A stretch of DNA of 64,000 bases from an uncultured Chloroflexia bacterium. GTDB taxonomy: Bacteria > Chloroflexota > Limnocylindria > Limnocylindrales > CSP1-4. The translations under genes and the position numbers were made by a program. The stretch lies in NCBI GenBank assembly GCA_963813335.1, contig CAWEYL010000003.1, forward strand, positions 1-64,000. The letters run 5' to 3'. Shown piece after piece: positions 4,850-64,000 of this stretch; position 1 is the stretch's first letter; every line of letters begins with the position of its first letter. The notes beneath the pieces were generated by a model that ran no database searches, was not told where the DNA came from, and worked only from the letters and a program-made list of their open reading frames with translations.

Positions 4850-4996
4850 TATGCACGATCTGCGCCGGGGTGCCCGTCCGCCGTGACGATGCACCTCGGC
4901 TGCATACCGGCACGTGGTGGAGCCGTCGTCCGCGCGCGATATGCATCCGAGGTGCATCACTCGCGAGAAAGCACCTCCCCGCGGAGAAGGTGCATA
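4850..4996. repeat. nested imperfect inverted repeat (palindromic intergenic element)
   Basis: GATGCACCTCGGCTGCATA (4888-4906) versus TATGCATCCGAGGTGCATC (4940-4958), 18/19 complementary; outer TATGCAC...GTGCATA arms; lies between convergent genes. Confidence 0.75.
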
Positions 4997-5064
4997 TCCG
5001 TGGACGGCGTCCCGGTGACCGAGGCGTCCGGCGACCGACGGCCTCGAGCGCGCCGTGAGCGCCG

Positions 5065-5634
5065 CTACAGGTCCTCGAGGCTGAACCGTCGGGCGTTGCC
5101 CATCTGACCCCACACCCGCGCCTGCGTCACCGCGAGCATCTGCCGGATGTGGTTCCGGTCGTGGTGGACCCATTCGCCGAGGAGCTCGTCCACCCGGAGG
5201 AGCCCGACTTCGGGGTGCATGCCCTGCCGGGCCAGGTCGGCGGGCCCGAGCCCGCGGACGAGCTCGATGCCGTCCGCGCGCAGGGCCGCGAACTCCGCGG
5301 CGAGCTCGCCGGCGTCGCGCAGGTCGTCGCGTCGGGCCTCGGCGACGGCCGGCGGGTCCCAGTCTTCGAGGTCGGGCGGGATGGCCGGCACGCTGCCACC
5401 GGGGCCGCCGACGAGGATCGTCCGGATCCGTCCCGCGAACCCGCGGCGCTCGGCCTCGATCAGGTGGCCGACGCATTCGTTGGCGCTCCACTCCCCCGGC
5501 TCCGGCCGCCAGCCGCCGACGGCGCCGAGCGCGGTCAGCTCGGCCACCACGGTCTCGGCGCTCGCGGCGAGCAGGTCGGCGACGGTCGCCGGCTCGAGTG
5601 CGGCGATGGCCGGGCTCGCCCGGTCGTCGGTCAT
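5065..5634 (-). CDS. DinB family protein
   Basis: WRPEPGEWSANECVGHL...GMHPEVG...WVHHDRNHIRQM (His triad). Confidence 0.88.
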   Translation of the reverse strand: MTDDRASPAIAALEPATVADLLAASAETVVAELTALGAVGGWRPEPGEWSANECVGHLIEAERRGFAGRIRTILVGGPGGSVPAIPPDLEDWDPPAVAEARRDDLRDAGELAAEFAALRADGIELVRGLGPADLARQGMHPEVGLLRVDELLGEWVHHDRNHIRQMLAVTQARVWGQMGNARRFSLEDL

Positions 5635-55708: not shown

Positions 55709-57115
55709 CTAGCGGCCCTCGCCGGTCTCGACCGGGAGGCCCGCGGCGCGCCAGGCCGGGAAGCCGGCACCGACCCACGACGCGTGCTCGAAGCCGGACG
55801 CGCGCAGCAGCGAGGTGCCGATCGACGCGCGGAAGCCCGCCTCGCAGATCACCGCGATCGGGCGGTCGCGGGGCAGGTCGGCGAGGCGGTCCGGCAGCGA
55901 GCCGCCGTTGATGTGCCAGGCGCCCGGGACGTGGCCGGCCGCGTACTCGTTCATCTGCCGGACATCGATGACGAGCGGGGCCTCGGCGGCGCCCGAGCCC
56001 GCCAGCGCGGCGGCCAGCTCCTCGATCGACAGCCGGCCGCTGGCCTCGACCGGACGCCCGGACGCGGCCCACGCCTCGACCCCGCCGTCGAGATAGCCGG
56101 CCATGTCGTCACGTCCGATCCGGATCGCCTGGCGCATGAGCGGGTCGAGGTCACCGGGCCGCTCGGCGAGCAGCACGACCGGCCGGTCGAGGTCGACCAC
56201 CCAGCCGAGCCAGGTCCCGAACGAGTCCTCGAGCGGGATCGAGATCGAGCCAGGGATATGCCCGGCGACGTGGACCGCCGCCGGTCGCGCGTCGACGAGC
56301 GTCGCGCCCTCGTCCATGGCGGTCTCGACCGCCGCCGGGTCCAGCGGCGGCGGCATCGGGATCCGGCCACCCAGCAGCGGCGGCCCGCCCTGGTTCGCCG
56401 GGCGCATCCGCGCGAAGTAGCGCGGGATCGCCGGCTGGCCGGCGAGCAGCGCCCGCGCGAAGGCATCGACGTCCATCGGCGAGAGCAGCGGGTCGAACCG
56501 GCGCTCCTGGCCGAGCGTGGTGGTGGCCGCCTCGCCGATCCCGGTCGAGCACAGCGACCCGGCGCCGTGGGTCGGGTGGACGTGCGTGCCGTCGCCGAGC
56601 GGCAGCAGGACGTCGTGGATCGAGTGGTACATGTCGTGGGCGTACGCGACCGCATGGTCCGCGCCGAGCAGGTCGGTCCGCCCGACCGCGCCGACCAGGA
56701 TCGAGCCGCCGCTCAACAGCGTCCCCGGATCGTCGGACACCGACCCGTCGACGACCCGGTACGACACGTGCTCGGGCGTGTGCCCGGGCGTGTCGAGGAC
56801 CTCGAAGTGCAGCCGCCCGACGTCGAAGCCCGCCCCGCCCGCCAGCCCGGCGTGCTCGTAGCGGAGCTCGGCGCCCGCCCCGATCACGTGCGTCGCCCCT
56901 GTCAACGCCGCCAGGTCGCGCCCGCCCGACACGTAATCGTTGTGCAGGTGGGTCTCGACGACGTGGCTGATCCGCAGGCCTCGCTCGGCCGCGGCGGCCA
57001 GGTAGATGTCGACATCGCGCCGCGGATCGACGATCGCGGCGACGCCCGCGTCCTCGTCCGCGATGAGCGTCGACAGGTGGCCCAGCCCGCGGATCGAGAA
57101 CGACTCGAGTCGCAT
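55709..57115 (-). CDS. MBL-fold hydrolase + two rhodanese domains (persulfide dioxygenase-sulfurtransferase-like)
   Basis: VDPRRD, ETHLHNDYVSG, TPGHTPEH, GRTDL, PTHGAGSLC, GHIPGS, VICEAGFRA. Confidence 0.92.
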   Translation of the reverse strand: MRLESFSIRGLGHLSTLIADEDAGVAAIVDPRRDVDIYLAAAAERGLRISHVVETHLHNDYVSGGRDLAALTGATHVIGAGAELRYEHAGLAGGAGFDVGRLHFEVLDTPGHTPEHVSYRVVDGSVSDDPGTLLSGGSILVGAVGRTDLLGADHAVAYAHDMYHSIHDVLLPLGDGTHVHPTHGAGSLCSTGIGEAATTTLGQERRFDPLLSPMDVDAFARALLAGQPAIPRYFARMRPANQGGPPLLGGRIPMPPPLDPAAVETAMDEGATLVDARPAAVHVAGHIPGSISIPLEDSFGTWLGWVVDLDRPVVLLAERPGDLDPLMRQAIRIGRDDMAGYLDGGVEAWAASGRPVEASGRLSIEELAAALAGSGAAEAPLVIDVRQMNEYAAGHVPGAWHINGGSLPDRLADLPRDRPIAVICEAGFRASIGTSLLRASGFEHASWVGAGFPAWRAAGLPVETGEGR

Positions 57116-57118
57116 CCG

Positions 57119-57868
57119 CTACATCATCACGAGGCCGCCGTCGACCGCCAGCACGTGGCCGGTGATGTACCCGGCCTCGTCCGAGGCGAGGAACGCGACG
57201 GCGTCGGCGATCTCCTGGGTGGTGCCGAAGCGCGCGAGCGGCGTGCGGTTGGTGATCTCGTCCATGAGCGGCTGCGGCAGGTCCTGGGTCAGCTCGGTCA
57301 GCACGAACCCTGGCGCGACGGCGTTGACCGTGATCCCGCGCGAGGCGAGCTCGCGGGCGGAGGCCTTGGTCAGCCCGATCAGCCCGGCCTTCGCCGACGA
57401 GTAGTTCGCCTGGCCCATCTGGCCGGCCTGGCCGGACACCGAGGTGATGTTGACGATCCGCCCGGCGCGCGCCTTGAGCATCGGCCGGGTCACGGCCTTG
57501 GTCATCCAGAACGCCCCGAAGAGGTTGGTCTCGAGGACTTCGCGCCAGGCCTCCTCGGTCATCCGCATGATCAGGTCGTCGCGGGTGACGCCGGCGTTGT
57601 TGACGAGGATATCGACCTTCCCGAACGCCTCGAGCACGGCCTTGACGACGCCGTCGGCGGCCTCCGGCGCGCGGGCATCGGCCTGGATCGAGACCGCCCG
57701 GCGGCCGAGCCCTTCGATGATGGCCACGGTCTCCGCGGCCGCCGCGGCATTGCCCTTGTACGTGAACGCCACGTCCGCGCCCTGCGTCGCGAGGCGGGTC
57801 GCGATCGCGCGGCCGATCCCCCGCGAGCCGCCGGTCACGAGGGCGCTCTTGCCGGTCAGGTCGATCAT
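57119..57868 (-). CDS. fabG: 3-oxoacyl-ACP reductase
   Basis: TGGSRGIG, LVNNAGVTRD, GQANYSSAKAG, NAVAPGF, ITGHVLAVDGG. Confidence 0.95.
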   Translation of the reverse strand: MIDLTGKSALVTGGSRGIGRAIATRLATQGADVAFTYKGNAAAAAETVAIIEGLGRRAVSIQADARAPEAADGVVKAVLEAFGKVDILVNNAGVTRDDLIMRMTEEAWREVLETNLFGAFWMTKAVTRPMLKARAGRIVNITSVSGQAGQMGQANYSSAKAGLIGLTKASARELASRGITVNAVAPGFVLTELTQDLPQPLMDEITNRTPLARFGTTQEIADAVAFLASDEAGYITGHVLAVDGGLVMM

Positions 57869-59061
57869 GCGTGCGTCTCCTGGCGGGCGGGCCCGGGCTC
57901 GCCGGGGACGACATCGTCGAGCGGGACGTCGACCGTGCCGGGCTGGGCCATGATGCGCGCGAGCGCGTCGGGGATCGGGTCCACCGAGTCCCAGTCGACC
58001 GGCGCCCGGATGACGAGGTCCGCCGGGTCGACGGCCGCGTCGCCGGCGATCCCGCGTGCCGGGTCGGCGGTCCATTCGATCGTCACCGCGCCGCTCGTGA
58101 AGCCGGCCCCGAAGGCCACGATCACGATCCGGTCGCCGACCTTGACCCGGCCCTCGTTGACCGCCTCGGCCAGGGCGATCGGCACGGACGCGGCCGACGT
58201 GTTCCCGTATTTGTGGAGGTTGACGAACATCTTCTCCATCGGCAGGTCCAGGCCCTTGGCCACCGCGTCGATGATGCGGATGTTGGCCTGGTGCGGGATG
58301 AACAGGTCGATGTCGGACGGCTGGAGGCCGGCCTTCCGGATCGACTCGAGCGCCGTGGACGCCAGCGTCCGCGTCGCGAACCGATAGGTCTCCTTGCCCT
58401 CCATCCGGATGTAGTGCTCGCCGCGGGCGATGGTGTCGGCCGAGGGCGGGCTCTTGGCGCCGCCGGCGGGCAGCCAGATCATGTAGGCGCCCTGCGGCTC
58501 GGTCGTCATCTCGATGCCGAGCCCGCCGCCCGGCTCGTCCGACGCGGACAGGACGACCGCCCCGGCCCCGTCGCCGAAGAGGATGCAGGTGTTGCGGTCC
58601 GTGTAGTCGAGGAAGCGGGTCAGCAGCTCGGCCCCGATGACCAGCACGTGCTTCGCCAGCCCGCTCGTGATGTAGGCGTGCGCGGTCGCGTACGCGTAGA
58701 CGAAGCCGGAGCATGCCGCGGCGACGTCCATCGCGGCGGCCTTCGTGTTGCCGATGGCCTCCTTGACCAGCGCCGCGGTCGAGGGCATCCAGTAGTCGGG
58801 CGTCAGCGTGGCGAGCAGGATCAGGTCGATGTCGTCCGGCTCGATGCCGGCCGTGCGGATCGCGCGCATCGACGCGACCGCGGCCATCGAGGCGGTCGTC
58901 TCGTGCGCGGCCGCGACCCGTCGCTCGCGGATCCCGGTGCGGGTGACGATCCACTCATCCGAGGTATCGACGATCCGCTCGAGGTCCTGGTTGGTGAGCA
59001 CCTGCGACGGGGCGTAGCGGCCCCAGCCGGTGACATGGGCGTAGCGCGCGACCTGACTCAC
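57865..59061 (-). CDS. fabH: 3-oxoacyl-ACP synthase III, with C-terminal extension
   Basis: DTSDEWIVTRTGIRERR, AACSGF, LFGDGAGA, PHQANIRI, YGNTSAAS, AFGAG. Confidence 0.95.
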   Translation of the reverse strand: MSQVARYAHVTGWGRYAPSQVLTNQDLERIVDTSDEWIVTRTGIRERRVAAAHETTASMAAVASMRAIRTAGIEPDDIDLILLATLTPDYWMPSTAALVKEAIGNTKAAAMDVAAACSGFVYAYATAHAYITSGLAKHVLVIGAELLTRFLDYTDRNTCILFGDGAGAVVLSASDEPGGGLGIEMTTEPQGAYMIWLPAGGAKSPPSADTIARGEHYIRMEGKETYRFATRTLASTALESIRKAGLQPSDIDLFIPHQANIRIIDAVAKGLDLPMEKMFVNLHKYGNTSAASVPIALAEAVNEGRVKVGDRIVIVAFGAGFTSGAVTIEWTADPARGIAGDAAVDPADLVIRAPVDWDSVDPIPDALARIMAQPGTVDVPLDDVVPGEPGPARQETHA

Positions 59062-59609
59062 AGCGGTTCCACCTCGACCAGTGGCTGCTTCGCCTTGACC
59101 AGTGTGCCGCTTTCGGGGATGACCTTGACCACGCGGCCGGCCAGGTCCGACTTGATCTCGTTGAACAGCTTCATCGCCTCGATCAGCCCCACCACCTGCC
59201 CGACCGCGATCTCGCCGCCGACGGTCACGTAGGGGGCCGAACCGGGCGCCGGCGAGCCGTAGAAGATGCCGGTCAGCGGCGCCTTGACCGATGGCTTCGA
59301 CGGTGCGCCCGGGTCGCGACCGGCCGCGGCCGGCTCGCCGGGACCGTGCCCGTCGGCGGAGGCCGCCACCGCGGCCGACGGCGGCGCCGGCTCCGCGACC
59401 GCGGTCGCGAACGCGGACGGCTTGCGCAGGACGAGCCCGGTCCCGCCCGACTCGACCTCGAGCTCGGTCAGGTCCGACCGGTCGAGGAGGTCCGCGAGCC
59501 GGTCGATGAGCGCCAGCAGCCCGGCGTCGCCGTCGTCGCGGACCGCGACCTCGGCCGGCGCCTCCGGCTCGGGGACGGCCCCGTCCGGGGCCTTCTCCTT
59601 GCCGGTCAT
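59058..59609 (-). CDS. accB: acetyl-CoA carboxylase biotin carboxyl carrier protein
   Basis: DLTELEV, APLTGIFY.SPAPG, IEAMKLFNEI (biotinyl Lys present). Confidence 0.93.
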   Translation of the reverse strand: MTGKEKAPDGAVPEPEAPAEVAVRDDGDAGLLALIDRLADLLDRSDLTELEVESGGTGLVLRKPSAFATAVAEPAPPSAAVAASADGHGPGEPAAAGRDPGAPSKPSVKAPLTGIFYGSPAPGSAPYVTVGGEIAVGQVVGLIEAMKLFNEIKSDLAGRVVKVIPESGTLVKAKQPLVEVEPL

Positions 59610-60862
59610 GCGTCGAACCGGGTGAAGACGAGCGCCGTGTTCTGGCCGCCGAAGCCGAAGGAGTTGCTGATCGCCGTCCGGATCTCGCGCGACGCGGCGA
59701 CGTTCGGCGTCAGGTCCAGGCCGACGCTCTCCGGGTCCGGGTCGACGAGGTTGATGGTCGGCGGCACGCAGCCGGTCAGGATCGACTGGATCGTGACGAT
59801 CGCCTCGATCGCGCCCGCGGCCCCGAGGGTGTGCCCGAGCATCGACTTGTTCGCCGTGATCGCCACCCGGGACGCGCCGTCGCCGAAGATCGTGCGCATC
59901 GCCTGGAGCTCGGCCTTGTCGCCCTCCGGGGTCGAGGTGGCGTGGGCGTTGACGTGGTCGATGTCGGCCGGCTCGAGCCCGGCCTTGCCGAGCGCGATCC
60001 GGGCGGCGCGCACCGCACCGATGCCGCCCGGCGCCGGCAGCGTGATGTGCGAGGCGTCCGCCGTCGCGCCGTAGCCCACGAGCTCGGCATAGATGGTCGC
60101 CCCGCGCGCCTCGGCGTGCTCGAGGGCCTCGAGGATCACGACGCCGGACCCCTCGCCGATGACGAACCCGTCGCGTCCGGAATCGAACGGGCGCGAGGCG
60201 CCTTCCGGGTCGTCGTTCCGGGTCGACAGCGCGCGCATCGCCGCGAACCCGCCGACGAGCGGCTCGAAGATGCCGGCCTCGGTGCCGCCCGCGACCATGA
60301 CGTCGGCGTCGCCGCGGCGGATGATCTCCGACGATTCGCCGAGGGCGTGGCCGCCCGAGGCACAGGCCGAGACCGTCGTGAAGTTCGGGCCGGTCATCCC
60401 GAACGAGATCGCGATCTGGCCGGCACCGATGTTGGGGATGCCCATCGGGACGAGGAACGGGCTGATGCGGTCCGGACCGCGCAAGGCGTTCGTGGAGATG
60501 CCCTCGACGAGCGTCCCGACGCCGCCCAGCCCGGTGGCGAGGATCACCCCGGTCCGCTCGGCGAGCTCGCCCTCGAACCGCGCCGGGAGCCCCGCCTGGT
60601 CGAGCGCCTCGCGGGCGGCCACGAGCCCGAACTGGATGTAGCGGTCGGTCCGCCGGATGTCCTTCCTGTCGAGGATGTGCGACGCGTCGAAGTCGCGGAC
60701 CTCGGCGGCGATCCGCGAGGTCAGCCGCGACGGGTCCCAGGCCTCGATGGTGCGCACGCCGGACCGGCCGGCGACGAGGCCCGCCCAGGTCGTCGCCACG
60801 TCGTTGCCGAGGGCCGTCACGGCCCCCATCCCGGTCACGACCACGCGCCGCCGCTCGCTCAT
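59606..60862 (-). CDS. fabF: 3-oxoacyl-ACP synthase II
   Basis: RRVVVTGMG, SACASG, SRPFD..RDGFVIGEG, NAHATST, KSMLGHTLGAAG, NSFGFGG. Confidence 0.96.
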   Translation of the reverse strand: MSERRRVVVTGMGAVTALGNDVATTWAGLVAGRSGVRTIEAWDPSRLTSRIAAEVRDFDASHILDRKDIRRTDRYIQFGLVAAREALDQAGLPARFEGELAERTGVILATGLGGVGTLVEGISTNALRGPDRISPFLVPMGIPNIGAGQIAISFGMTGPNFTTVSACASGGHALGESSEIIRRGDADVMVAGGTEAGIFEPLVGGFAAMRALSTRNDDPEGASRPFDSGRDGFVIGEGSGVVILEALEHAEARGATIYAELVGYGATADASHITLPAPGGIGAVRAARIALGKAGLEPADIDHVNAHATSTPEGDKAELQAMRTIFGDGASRVAITANKSMLGHTLGAAGAIEAIVTIQSILTGCVPPTINLVDPDPESVGLDLTPNVAASREIRTAISNSFGFGGQNTALVFTRFDA

Positions 60863-61605
60863 CGCACGAGCTTGCCGGTGCGGACCGTGGCCGCGCGATA
60901 GACGTCGCCGGGGAGGCCGCGTGCCGAGATCGCGTTGGCGACCGAGAGCGCGTCGAACTCGGTCCGCTTGATCTCCGCCTCGACGTTGCCGTCGACCAGG
61001 TCGACCAGCGCCCAGGACGCCGTCGGGTCGCCATCGAAGACGTAGCCCGCCGACCCGGCGTTCACGATGATCTTCCAGCCCAGGTCGCGCACCTCGGGGA
61101 GGTGGGTGTGGCCGCAGGCGATGACCCGCGCGTCGGTCCGCGACACCCGCTCGAGGATGACGTTGGGGTCGAGCGCCTGGTCGAAGCCCGCGGTCTGCGA
61201 CCCGGGGGACGCGTGGCAGGCGAGGATCAGCGTGTCGTCGGTCGAGCGCGCCCGGCGCTCGTTCGGGAGGCGGCGCAGCCAGGCCAGCCGCTCGTCGCCG
61301 AGCGCGTCGTTGGCCCATTCGGCCGCGGCGAGGTACGTCTCGGGGACGCCGTCGGTCATCCACGGGAACGCCGCGGCGTAGTCGAAGTCGGCGACCGCGA
61401 CGTCCGTGTTCCCGGCGACCACCATCGCGCCGTCGGACTCCATCGTCCGCAGCAGGTCGATCACGCCGGCCGGGTCCGGTCCGTTGTAGACGAGGTCGCC
61501 GGCGACCGCGACGAGGTCCGGCCGGCTCGCGTGGACCGCCTTGCGGACGGCCTCGAGCGCCGGGAGGTTGCCGTGGATGTCGGAGATGATCGCGAGCCGG
61601 GTCAT
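60859..61605 (-). CDS. calcineurin-like metallophosphoesterase (YfcE/MJ0936-like)
   Basis: ISDIHGN, AGDLV, AGNTD, CHASP, CGHTH, VNAGS; 4-bp overlaps with fabZ and fabF. Confidence 0.9.
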   Translation of the reverse strand: MTRLAIISDIHGNLPALEAVRKAVHASRPDLVAVAGDLVYNGPDPAGVIDLLRTMESDGAMVVAGNTDVAVADFDYAAAFPWMTDGVPETYLAAAEWANDALGDERLAWLRRLPNERRARSTDDTLILACHASPGSQTAGFDQALDPNVILERVSRTDARVIACGHTHLPEVRDLGWKIIVNAGSAGYVFDGDPTASWALVDLVDGNVEAEIKRTEFDALSVANAISARGLPGDVYRAATVRTGKLVR

Positions 61606-62069
61606 CGGAGCACGCCCTCGCCCGGGATGATGAAGCTGATCGTGGTCTCGCAGGCGACCTCGCCGTCGACGCTGGCGACGCCGCGGCCGCGCCCGAAGCG
61701 GCCACCGAGCTTCTCCATCGTGACCTCGAGGCGGAGCGTGTCGCCCGGCACGACGATCCGCTTGAAGCGCGTGTCGTCGATCCCCGCGAAGAGCCCGATC
61801 CGGTCCCCGAAGCCGGGCTGCTTGGCGACGTAGATCGCCATGGTCTGGGCGAGCGCCTCCACCTGGAGGACGCCCGGCATGACCGGCAGGCCCGGGAAGT
61901 GGCCCTGGAAGAACCACTCCGTGGCGGTGACGCCCTTGATCCCCACGATCCGCTTCGCCTCGGGCTCGTACTCGACGATCCGGTCGACGAGGAGGAACGG
62001 CCAGCGATGCGGGATCAGTGCTTCGATCTCGCGGACCGAGTGGATCGTGGCGGGTGGCGCGTCGGTCAC
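61602..62069 (-). CDS. fabZ: 3-hydroxyacyl-ACP dehydratase
   Basis: IPHRWPFLLVDR, FFQGHFP..PVMPGVL.VEALAQ, FKRIVVPGD. Confidence 0.96.
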   Translation of the reverse strand: MTDAPPATIHSVREIEALIPHRWPFLLVDRIVEYEPEAKRIVGIKGVTATEWFFQGHFPGLPVMPGVLQVEALAQTMAIYVAKQPGFGDRIGLFAGIDDTRFKRIVVPGDTLRLEVTMEKLGGRFGRGRGVASVDGEVACETTISFIIPGEGVLR

Positions 62070-62148: not shown

Positions 62149-63520
62149 TCACGTACGGGCGGCGGCGGTCAGGAAGGCGGCGCTCCCGATGCGGTCGAGC
62201 AGGTTCGTCGTGAACCGCCCGTCCAGGAAGACCTCGTTGGCCAGCAGGGCGCGCTGGATCGCGACGTTCGTGACGAGGCCGTCGATGACGAGCTCCTCGA
62301 GGGCCACCCGCCCGCGGGCGATGGCCGTCGCCCGGTCCGGGCCCCAGACGACCAGCTTGCCGAGGAGCGAGTCGTAGAACGGCGGGACTTCGTAGCCGGT
62401 GTACAGGTGCGAGTCCATCCGGACCCCGGGCCCGCCGGGCGCGTGGTAGCGCTCGACGATGCCGGCACCCGGGCGGAAGTCCGCCTCGGGATCCTCGGCG
62501 TTGATGCGGAACTCGATGACGTGGCCGCTGAACGCGACGTCCGCCTGGCTGAACCCGAGCGGCTCCCCGGCCGCGATGCGGATCTGGGTCGTCAGGAGGT
62601 CGATCCCGGTCAGCATCTCGGTGACCGGGTGCTCGACCTGGACGCGGCAGTTGATCTCGATGAAGTAGAAGCCGCCCGCGCTGTCCACCAGGAACTCGAG
62701 CGTCCCGACGTTCTCGTAGCCGGCCGCCACGACCGCCCGGAGGGCCCGCTCGGCGAGGTCCGCGCGAGCCGCCTCGGACAGCGCCGGCGTCGGCGCCTCC
62801 TCGAGGATCTTCTGGTGGCGGCGCTGGACGGAGCAGTCGCGCTCGCCGAGGTGGACGCCGTGGCCGTAGCGGTCGACCGCGACCTGGACCTCGACGTGGC
62901 GGTTCTCGTCGAGCCACTTCTCGAGGTAGAGCGAGTCGTCGCCGAAGGCCGCCTTCGCCTCGGAGCGGCAGACCTTGAGCACCGATTCGAGCTCGCGGGC
63001 CGTGCGCACCATGCGCATCCCCTTGCCGCCACCGCCCGCCGACGGCTTGATGAGGACCGGGTAACCGAGCCGCTCCGCCTCCGCGAGGGCGTGGGTCTCA
63101 TCGCGGAGCATGCCGTCGGAGCCCGGGATCGTCGGCAGGCCGTGCGCGCCCAGCAGCCGGCGGGTCGCCTCCTTGCTGGCGAACCGCTCGAGGACCGGGC
63201 CGGGCGGGCCGATGAAGGTGATGCCGTGGGCCGCGACGACGTCGGCGAAGCCCTCGTCCTCGGACAGGAAGCCGTAGCCCGGGTGGATGCCGTCGCAGCC
63301 GGTCACCAATGCGGCCGAGATGACCGCCGGCGCCGACAGGTACGAGCGCTTGGCGTCGGCCGGGCCGATGCAGATCGCCTCGTCGGCGAGCTGGACCGGC
63401 AGCGAGTCGCGGTCCGCCTCGCTGTAGGCCACGACCGCCTCGACACCGAGCGTCCGGCACGCCGCGCAGGATGCGCAGGGCGATCTCGCCGCGGTTGGCG
63501 ATGAGGATCTTGCGGAACAT
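62149..63520 (-). CDS. accC: acetyl-CoA carboxylase biotin carboxylase; one extra base near 63462
   Basis: MFRKILIANRGEIA, IHPGYGFLSE, GGGGKGMR, ERDCSVQRRHQK, VQVEHPVTE, RINAED, YDSLLGKL. Confidence 0.93.
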
Positions 63521-63523
63521 CGG

Positions 63524-64000
63524 TCAGGCGTCCCCGCCCGGGGCCGCGGCCGTGACGAGCTCGATGACGATCAGCTCCTGGCCGTATTCGACCGCGTCGC
63601 CGGGCTCGACGAGGCTCGCCCCGACCAGGCCGTCGACCGGGGTCACGACCTCCTGGGCGACCCCGAGCATGTCGACGATGCCGAGCCGGTCGCCGGCGCG
63701 GACCTTGGTCCCGGCACGGACCCCCGTCCGCGGCTGGAAGATGCCGACCGCCGGCGAGGTCGCGACGGAGCGGCGCGGGTCCGCACCGTCACGCCCATCA
63801 CGGCCGTCCCGGCCGGGGCCGACCGGCGTCAGCGTGGCGACCGCCGGATGGCTCGCGTGCGCTGACGATCCGCGGCTCGACCGCTCCGAGGAGCGCTTGC
63901 CGGCAGGGGTGGCCGGGCGGCGCAGGCGGACCTTCCAGTCGCCCTCGCGGACCTCGAGCTCGCCGAGGCCGGTCGCCGCGAGCTTGGCGATCAGCGCCGG
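63524..64000 (-). CDS. BCCP-like protein lacking the biotinylation lysine (5' end outside the window)
   Basis: Manual translation (not in the ORF track): ...LGELEVREGDWKVRLRR...ATSPAVGIF...VRAGDRLGIVDMLGVAQEV..PVDG....LVEPGDAVEYGQEL..IE; stop 3 nt before the accC ATG. Confidence 0.85.
   Translation of the reverse strand, partial: PALIAKLAATGLGELEVREGDWKVRLRRPATPAGKRSSERSSRGSSAHASHPAVATLTPVGPGRDGRDGRDGADPRRSVATSPAVGIFQPRTGVRAGTKVRAGDRLGIVDMLGVAQEVVTPVDGLVGASLVEPGDAVEYGQELIVIELVTAAAPGGDA

Follow-up and report, generated by a model that had tools for sequence, protein, structure and literature searches.

The window analysed here, positions 1–64,000 of contig C3 (CAWEYL010000003.1) from an uncultured Chloroflexia bacterium of the class Limnocylindria, carries on its reverse strand a gene that encodes a full-length biotin carboxyl carrier protein (BCCP, AccB) homologue without the lysine that holds biotin. 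We name this lysine-less paralogue, both the gene and its protein at window 63524–64000, BCCPx. The genome comprises 2.54 Mb in seven contigs and is 81% complete. BCCPx belongs to an operon of acc and fab genes for acetyl-CoA carboxylase (ACC) and its companions, in which a canonical accB is also present, and it represents a bacterial, operon-encoded, biotin-less BCCP paralogue: ordinary in fold and unusual in kind. The reading that we favour, and hold with about even confidence, is that BCCPx serves as a non-catalytic partner of ACC with a structural or tuning role, comparable to the ‘glue’ role discussed for the plant BADC proteins.

The BCCPx gene extends past the end of the window to approximately C3:64091, as read from the DNA beyond it, and an intact form of the protein (P0001, 188 aa) is 99% identical to the window copy. 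Its N-terminal part consists of a helix and β-hairpin followed by a flexible linker, as in BCCPs, and residues E50, E52–E55, R61 and R64 of the N-terminal segment are invariant in 30 of 30 homologues. The C-terminal domain reads SPAVGIF...GDRLGIVDMLGV...VEYGQELIVIE and adopts the flattened β-barrel of the biotinyl fold according to the AlphaFold2 model, Foldseek and PF00364. At its hairpin tip, the (A/V/S)-M-K motif that bears the biotinyl-lysine of BCCPs is missing, and the reading frame is open across this site. TIGR00531 aligns to BCCPx over profile positions 8–155 of 156 with 49.2 bits (E 7.4e-13), under the equivalog cut-off of 115.2 bits, of which the canonical AccB of the same genome, at 106 bits, likewise falls short. 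PF00364 matches BCCPx with 23.3 bits (E 5.9e-5), barely over its cut-off of 22.1, and matches the canonical AccB with 47.2 bits. The two proteins share 27% identity over 188 columns. The preliminary description of this DNA, made from its letters, had reported a BCCP architecture in the open reading frame (ORF) next to accC, an in-frame hairpin IVDMLGV devoid of lysine, and a canonical accB with EAMKL downstream in the same operon. These sequence details are all correct, and the coordinates of the hairpin and of the canonical accB were confirmed (Table 1).

The loss of the lysine is conserved in the family. A word-indexed protein search returned 3161 proteins at E ≤1e-3, and among the best 120 of them, which are 56–99% identical to BCCPx, the hairpin reads [VI]D[MV]LG[VI] in 120/120 and [AS]MK in none. 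In 62 of these 120 there is no lysine anywhere in the last 85 residues, and the lysine of the GTKVRAGD stretch is variable, being K, R, S, T or P. In a scan of 185,579 species genomes, a relative was encoded in 221 stretches. The 80 loci that matched best, labelled nearly all as Limnocylindria, Chloroflexota or ‘Chloroflexia’ metagenome-assembled genomes, have a lysine-less hairpin throughout (80/80), and a canonical accB with IEAMKL is present in all 64 that reach that far, the contigs of the other 16 ending before accB. As far as the contigs extend, the order accDA-BCCPx-accC-fabZ-MPE-fabF-accB-fabH-fabG, where MPE denotes a metallophosphoesterase gene, is the same in all 80. A profile search of 1.84 billion representatives found 144 proteins at E ≤1e-30 and 397 at E ≤1e-10; of the 150 representatives listed, 145 are lysine-less, and the remaining five are frameshifted or chimeric calls. 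The survey of relatives proposed in the preliminary description thus upheld both the lysine loss and the fixed accDA-BCCPx-accC order, and the motif MK, whose presence in orthologues had been named as counter-evidence, occurs in none of the 120 homologues, 80 loci and 150 representatives listed. Two loci carry labels of other phyla, Patescibacteria (L066) and Methylomirabilota (L077). We rejected them as signs of a wider spread and read them as probably mis-binned contigs, because they show the full Limnocylindria gene order and 83–86% AccC identity.

Selection has maintained BCCPx. The median pairwise ratio of non-synonymous to synonymous substitution rates (dN/dS) is 0.22 for its C-terminal domain, computed from 2997 of 3003 pairs, and 0.14 for the N-terminal one, alongside 0.12 for the AccB C-terminal domain and 0.14 for AccC; these values were obtained by NG86 on GC-rich genes and are good for comparison only. 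BCCPx is therefore a maintained protein under purifying selection, somewhat less constrained than AccB.

To describe the fold, we modelled the orthologue of locus L003 (P0015) with AlphaFold2 from an 84-row alignment, at a mean predicted local distance difference test score (pLDDT) of 77. The model comprises a helix (residues 16–44), two strands (48–53 and 56–61), a low-confidence linker (62–120) and a C-terminal domain (approximately 123–193), with ten-residue blocks averaging pLDDT values of 95–98 over residues 121–190. The best Foldseek match in the PDB is the biotinyl domain of E. coli BCCP (1BDO), with a TM score of 0.83 on the target, a root-mean-square deviation of 1.3 Å over 76 columns and 30% identity, followed by 5GUA / Pyrococcus BCCP and by 4HR7, the complex of E. 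coli biotin carboxylase (BC) with BCCP. Modelling the natural AccC and BCCPx pair of L003 as a complex, in three runs and with three controls, gave an ipSAE of 0.71 versus 0.00 for the best control. Of 80 solved complexes, 58 reach the mark applied to this score, as do 2 of 110 mismatched pairs; the counts are a rough guide only, as our own alignments were used. The runs share at least 40% of their contacts, and the partner pLDDT is at least 61. In the predicted interface, BCCPx residues 130–133 (AVGI), 157–160 (the MLGV hairpin), 182 and 184–187 (EYGQ) face AccC residues 34, 49–53, 59, 64–73 and 98, and most of the BCCPx contact positions are invariant or nearly so in the 84-row family alignment.

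The position of the gene points in the same direction as a role beside AccC. BCCPx is the second gene of the operon and not its head, as the preliminary description had placed it: the stop codon of a fused accD-accA lies 3 nt from the BCCPx start, and accC begins 3 nt beyond the BCCPx stop. With these spacings, the three genes are probably translationally coupled. The accA models match the fused gene with 386 and 357 bits and its accD part scores 119 bits, the Zn-ribbon-bearing AccD N-terminus standing in a shifted frame in this assembly. Several adjacent genes of the operon overlap by 4 nt, and the canonical accB follows 3.9 kb downstream of BCCPx.

Lysine-less paralogues are not confined to the class of the window. 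Among 401 Chloroflexota genomes, a profile search gave matches in 179 at E ≤1e-5, including every genome from the four families of the window’s class (f1 23/23, f2 4/4, f3 16/16, f4 2/2). The hairpin is lysine-less in 29 of 30 f1 and f3 loci (f1 23/24, f3 6/6), the pattern having found none in the f1 locus L105, and the lysine is absent from all six f2 and f4 loci. The accDA-BCCPx-accC order also occurs in f2 and f3 and, in part, in f4. For other families, we fetched the best match of 14 genomes; 13 are lysine-less and one is canonical. The lysine-less hairpins outside the class read VDVLGV, [VI]ETLGI, VEALNV, IQSLNV, IEALGM, IEVLGM, VEALAI, IETLRV and VEVLRM. No acc or fab gene lies near the paralogue in any of the eight such loci fetched with their flanks; in six of them (L133–L138) it is flanked by genes for Xaa-Pro aminopeptidase (pepP), efp and the exonuclease VII large subunit (xseA), neighbours that were named from the appearance of their sequences and not by a family scan. 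A canonical accB (I/VEAMK or IESMK) coexists in 5/5 such genomes checked, directly after fabF as in the window. We note that the efp-linked slot of these classes is without accC, the working accB of the phylum as a whole following fabF. Homologues with NCBI or UniRef names include those of the cultured Ktedonobacteria Thermogemmatispora tikiterensis, T. argillosa and Dictyobacter arantiisoli, and in 118 of 120 Ktedonobacteria-type matches Asn, Ala or Asp replaces the hairpin lysine.

A rooted maximum-likelihood tree of 46 rows and 167 columns, with E. coli BCCP (annotated K-12 record) as the single outgroup and no plant sequence included, unites all 30 lysine-less rows in one clade (support 99/93). 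The alignment is short, its hairpin columns were kept, and the long-branch row L106 was left out. Within this clade, the window’s class forms a long-branched subclade of 18 rows (100/98). The fabF-linked canonical AccB proteins form the neighbouring clade, a pairing that is weakly supported (91/61). Since the lysine-less proteins fall into a single clade, one duplication of accB and one loss of the lysine suffice as an explanation. As this clade is internal to Chloroflexota, BCCPx probably arose there independently of BADC, to judge from these sequences. Among the Atlas matches listed, all clusters are of Chloroflexota and none is a plant BADC cluster, which does not show that such a match is absent.

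Taken as a partner of ACC, BCCPx would be made together with AccD-AccA and AccC in a fixed proportion. Because its acceptor lysine is absent, it is probably not biotinylated. The most conserved surface of its biotinyl-like domain, formed by AVG, the lysine-less hairpin and VEYGQ, would dock on the AccC N-terminal domain, and the retained N-terminal helix and β-hairpin would allow it to join the BC-BCCP subcomplex beside the real carrier AccB. In this role, BCCPx would be a ‘fifth subunit’ of ACC, structural and fixed, with an organising or tuning effect on the enzyme and no part in carrying CO2. Binding to AccC is suggested by the complex model, and we infer co-assembly with AccB and the direction of any effect on activity. 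The earlier proposal that a non-biotinylated ACC subunit or regulator occupies the place beside accC is thus supported in part: conserved lysine loss, synteny, selection, fold and the AccC model all agree with it, and the position at the operon head falls away.

Several observations weigh against this partnership. The C-terminal domain of BCCPx evolves about twice as fast as that of AccB. The segment from G-x-F to the hairpin, which holds the ‘thumb’ of ACC-type BCCPs, measures 21 residues in 120/120 homologues versus 27 in the AccB of the same genome. In other classes, the lysine-less gene adjoins efp, pepP and xseA and not acc genes, so gene order does not oblige the family to function in ACC. 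The good score of the complex may stem from the memory that the model has of the solved structure 4HR7; as that complex was already known, the result shows likeness and supports binding to AccC without demonstrating it. Finally, whether BADC itself activates assembly or inhibits the enzyme is disputed, in the part of the source available (PMC11926652).

This dispute leads to a second explanation, in which BCCPx is a competitive ‘dummy carrier’ that lowers flux by taking up the sites of BCCP on AccC or the carboxyltransferase. It draws on the same complex model, fold and lysine-loss data as the structural partner, and the modelled contact involves the same hairpin face as would be offered by a real carrier. 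An inhibitor model has been argued for BADC (PMC11926652, available part), and in other classes the paralogue is encoded apart from acc genes, which would permit separate regulation. In Limnocylindria, the gene stands 3 nt from its catalytic neighbours and would be produced at a fixed ratio with its target, an odd arrangement for a regulator, and BCCPx occurs throughout the class and evolves under purifying selection. We consider this explanation rather unlikely, though with an appreciable chance of being right, and rank it below the structural partner because the gene is wedged so closely between catalytic genes.

BCCPx might also work outside ACC, its place in the Limnocylindria acc operon being secondary. 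It could be a permanent mimic of apo-BCCP whose partner is the biotin protein ligase or a regulator of PII or biotin-sensing type; it could also serve another carboxylase as an adaptor. The linkage to efp, pepP and xseA in the six loci read, with no acc or fab gene in reach in the eight searched, would fit such a role, as would a weak biotin-ligase-like fragment (PF03099, 19 bits) two genes upstream of accD-accA and another biotin carboxylase-like sequence in the genome (C1:436377). Yet many bacteria classically have their working accB linked to efp, so this context would be inherited and is no evidence of a new role, and the modelled docking surface for AccC is the most conserved part of BCCPx. 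A function elsewhere is accordingly improbable in our estimation.

It is very improbable that BCCPx still bears a prosthetic group, whether biotin or lipoate attached to a lysine elsewhere or some other modification. One lysine alone is invariant, K42 (numbered in the 194-aa reading), and its place is the N-terminal helix. Conserved lysines are absent from the biotinyl-like domain, as the 62 homologues with lysine-free C-terminal regions illustrate, and in the biotinyl fold it is the hairpin lysine that biotin and lipoyl ligases recognise.

The assembly itself contains 1-base frameshifts. In the window, accC is split into ORFs 63098–63520 and 62149–63432 by one extra base at 63461–63464, and the first approximately 26 codons of BCCPx stand in another frame owing to a 1-base frameshift at C3:64013–64014. 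The genes accD (L162 approximately 2300–2340) and lysC (L162 approximately 4900–5300) are split too, such that the frameshifts cluster within approximately 6 kb. We placed Logan contigs of four public runs (X1, X2, X4 and X16) on the stretch. At the accC site (L001 1662–1665, equal to window 63461–63464), the contigs of all four runs are one base shorter, one of them a contig of 144 nt with a single other difference from the assembly. At the BCCPx 5′ site (L001 2214–2215), one base is absent from an X2 contig of 362 nt that differs at one other place and from an X4 contig of 613 nt with four further differences. Given such near-identical contigs, both frameshifts are most simply extra bases in this assembly, and 67 of 80 related loci have AccC as one intact ORF of 456 aa. 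The 1-base frameshifts of this stretch are very probably assembly indels; as they affect essential genes, other ‘broken’ genes of this genome need careful reading. None of the indels falls in the BCCPx hairpin, and the X2 and X4 contigs across it show no difference there among the differences listed. In four RNA-labelled runs, only 0.05–0.07 of the sampled words were present. Contigs of X16 cover the accC 5′ end and a short part of BCCPx (depth approximately 4, with indels); their source is a relative, and we draw no conclusion on transcription from them. Despite the indels in accC, accD, lysC and the BCCPx 5′ end, the chance that the missing lysine is a sequencing error or marks a strain-specific decaying pseudogene is negligible: a change from Lys to Leu (AAR to CTC) takes several base changes, and the idea is refuted by the orthologues, whose hairpins are lysine-free wherever examined; dN/dS values of 0.14–0.22 also speak against it.

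Comparing BCCPx, the probable non-catalytic partner, with plant and green-algal BADC proteins (Arabidopsis BADC1-3) reveals a similar design. BADC is described as non-catalytic, ‘unique to the plant htACCase’ and 25–30% identical to BCCP; it is without the AMKL motif, is not biotinylated and interacts with BC and BCCP, and both a glue model and an inhibitor model have been argued for it (PMC11926652, available part). BCCPx is likewise a BCCP-like protein without a biotinylation motif, is 27% identical to its own AccB and is modelled on AccC. It differs in being bacterial and operon-encoded and in having a thumb segment six residues shorter. The likeness to BADC put forward in the preliminary description holds in the features that could be compared; it is a likeness of probable function rather than of demonstrated descent, and the tree gives a clade internal to Chloroflexota.

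With canonical AccB/BCCP (TIGR00531; 1BDO, 4HR7), BCCPx shares the three-part architecture and the fold. It differs by its missing MK, its shortened thumb segment, a linker motif of its own, VGPG(RDG)n, and a TIGR00531 score of 49.2 bits against the 115.2-bit cut-off. The efp-linked paralogues of other classes belong to the same clade as BCCPx (30/30, 99/93) and also coexist with a fabF-linked canonical accB; unlike BCCPx, they have Asn, Ala, Arg or Gly at the lysine position (EALNV or QSLNV in 118 of 120), keep the thumb length, lack the VGPG motif and do not stand beside accC. The sources annotate them as ‘acetyl-CoA carboxylase biotin carboxyl carrier protein’. The epsilon (AccE-type) subunits of actinobacterial acyl-CoA carboxylases are unrelated to BCCP in sequence and fold. 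They resemble BCCPx in being small non-catalytic partners, but they are not derived from BCCP. Their reported function is that of a ‘glue’ for the holoenzyme (PMC11926652 citing Gago et al., available part). The mycobacterial proteins MSMEG_0435-0436, which bind a carboxylase and sequester biotin, were considered as relatives and rejected, as they are KipA/KipI-type and not BCCP-like (10.1101/2025.10.28.685139, available part). For C. aurantiacus ACC, the accessible part of the published work treats BC1, BC2 and the canonical BCCP and does not mention a lysine-less paralogue (PMC11077971). Our literature search, for which subscription journals and supplements were mostly out of reach, found no paper on a bacterial lysine-less BCCP of either form.

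Two features set the Limnocylindria proteins apart within the family. The thumb segment, short in all 120 close homologues, is 27–28 residues long in 118 of 120 Ktedonobacteria-type paralogues. This segment is reported to be functionally important in E. coli BCCP (PMC11926652, available part). The second feature is the VGPG motif of the otherwise variable linker. It occurs in 119/120 close homologues and in 52 of the 150 representatives listed, and is absent from Ktedonobacteria-type (0/120) and f21-type (0/63) proteins. Gly-Arg-Asp/Glu repeats, with Gly at every third residue, often come after it (84/120). To judge by its sequence, the VGPG(RDG)n motif may be a short docking motif.

Table 1. 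Positions in the window of BCCPx, its parts and the neighbouring genes of the operon.
Feature	Position	Strand	Remarks
BCCPx, 3′ part	63524..64000	(-)	477 nt, 158 codons + stop; 5′-open ORF, stop at 63526-63524
N-terminal segment ELEVREGDWKVRLRR	63917..63961	(-)	corresponds to BCCP N-terminal β-hairpin; two strands after a helix predicted
Linker motif LTPVGPGRDGRDGRDG	63785..63832	(-)	within Pro/Gly/Arg-rich linker; predicted disordered
Biotinyl-domain-like C-terminal domain	63560..63757	(-)	66 codons, SPAVG...IVIE
Hairpin IVDMLGV	63659..63679	(-)	Leu codon 63665-63667 at canonical biotinyl-Lys position
accC (biotin carboxylase)	62149..63520	(-)	split in this assembly; start 3 nt after BCCPx stop
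fabZ	61602..62069	(-)	
Metallophosphoesterase gene (MPE)	60859..61605	(-)	PF12850 69.8 bits; inside operon
fabF	59606..60862	(-)	
accB, canonical	59058..59609	(-)	183 aa; IEAMKL 59166-59183, Lys codon 59169-59171
fabH	57865..59061	(-)	
fabG	57119..57868	(-)	

The surroundings of BCCPx hold further features (Table 1). A metallophosphoesterase (PF12850/PF00149) between fabZ and fabF is unexpected in an acc/fab operon. Its slot is kept in all of the 80 loci with a contig long enough and in family f2, but is missing from the f3 locus examined. The same strand holds, upstream of accD-accA (C3 approximately 66051–67749; L162 3699–4250 and 2552–3694), a gene for a sigma factor of the extracytoplasmic function (ECF) type and the biotin-ligase-like fragment. 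The sigma factor gene (Sigma70_r2, 38 bits) is apparently fused or frameshifted with its downstream part. The fragment, two genes upstream of accD-accA, has a KWPNDL-type motif, and its 19 bits against PF03099 are below the 21-bit cut-off. The other biotin carboxylase-like sequence lies on a different contig, C1. Directly downstream of fabG, window 55709–57115 contains a 468-aa ORF whose translation, judged by eye, resembles a protein of metallo-β-lactamase fold fused with rhodanese-like domains.

A broader reading concerns the whole phylum. Nearly all lysine-less proteins inspected keep VEYGQ (VEFGM in one), and the fabF-linked AccB proteins have VKAKQ, VQKGD and similar sequences at this position; this retention on one side and divergence on the other raises the idea of a division of labour. 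Tentatively, and at clearly less than even chances, we propose that the ACC of Chloroflexota is a five-component enzyme. An ancient duplication of accB and a single loss of the lysine would have given rise to a permanently docked structural BCCP with the classical VEYGQ-type BC-binding face, and the fabF-linked AccB with its diverged face would be the free-swinging carrier. This would have happened independently of plant BADC and perhaps long before it. In Limnocylindria, the copy would have moved between accD-accA and accC and gained the VGPG(RDG)n motif with a partner of its own.

Non-biotinylated BCCP look-alikes have so far been regarded as confined to the heteromeric ACCase of plants, as far as the available part of the source goes (PMC11926652). 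As BCCPx is without the lysine that defines BCCPs, it should not be annotated as one, though the sources do so, and labelling lysine-less proteins as working BCCPs would mislead metabolic reconstructions that count biotin-dependent carriers. The lysine-less family is conserved across a phylum and has cultured members in Thermogemmatispora and Dictyobacter. A bacterial family of BADC-like design would give a simpler, operon-encoded system for the action of a ‘dummy carrier’ on a multi-subunit carboxylase.

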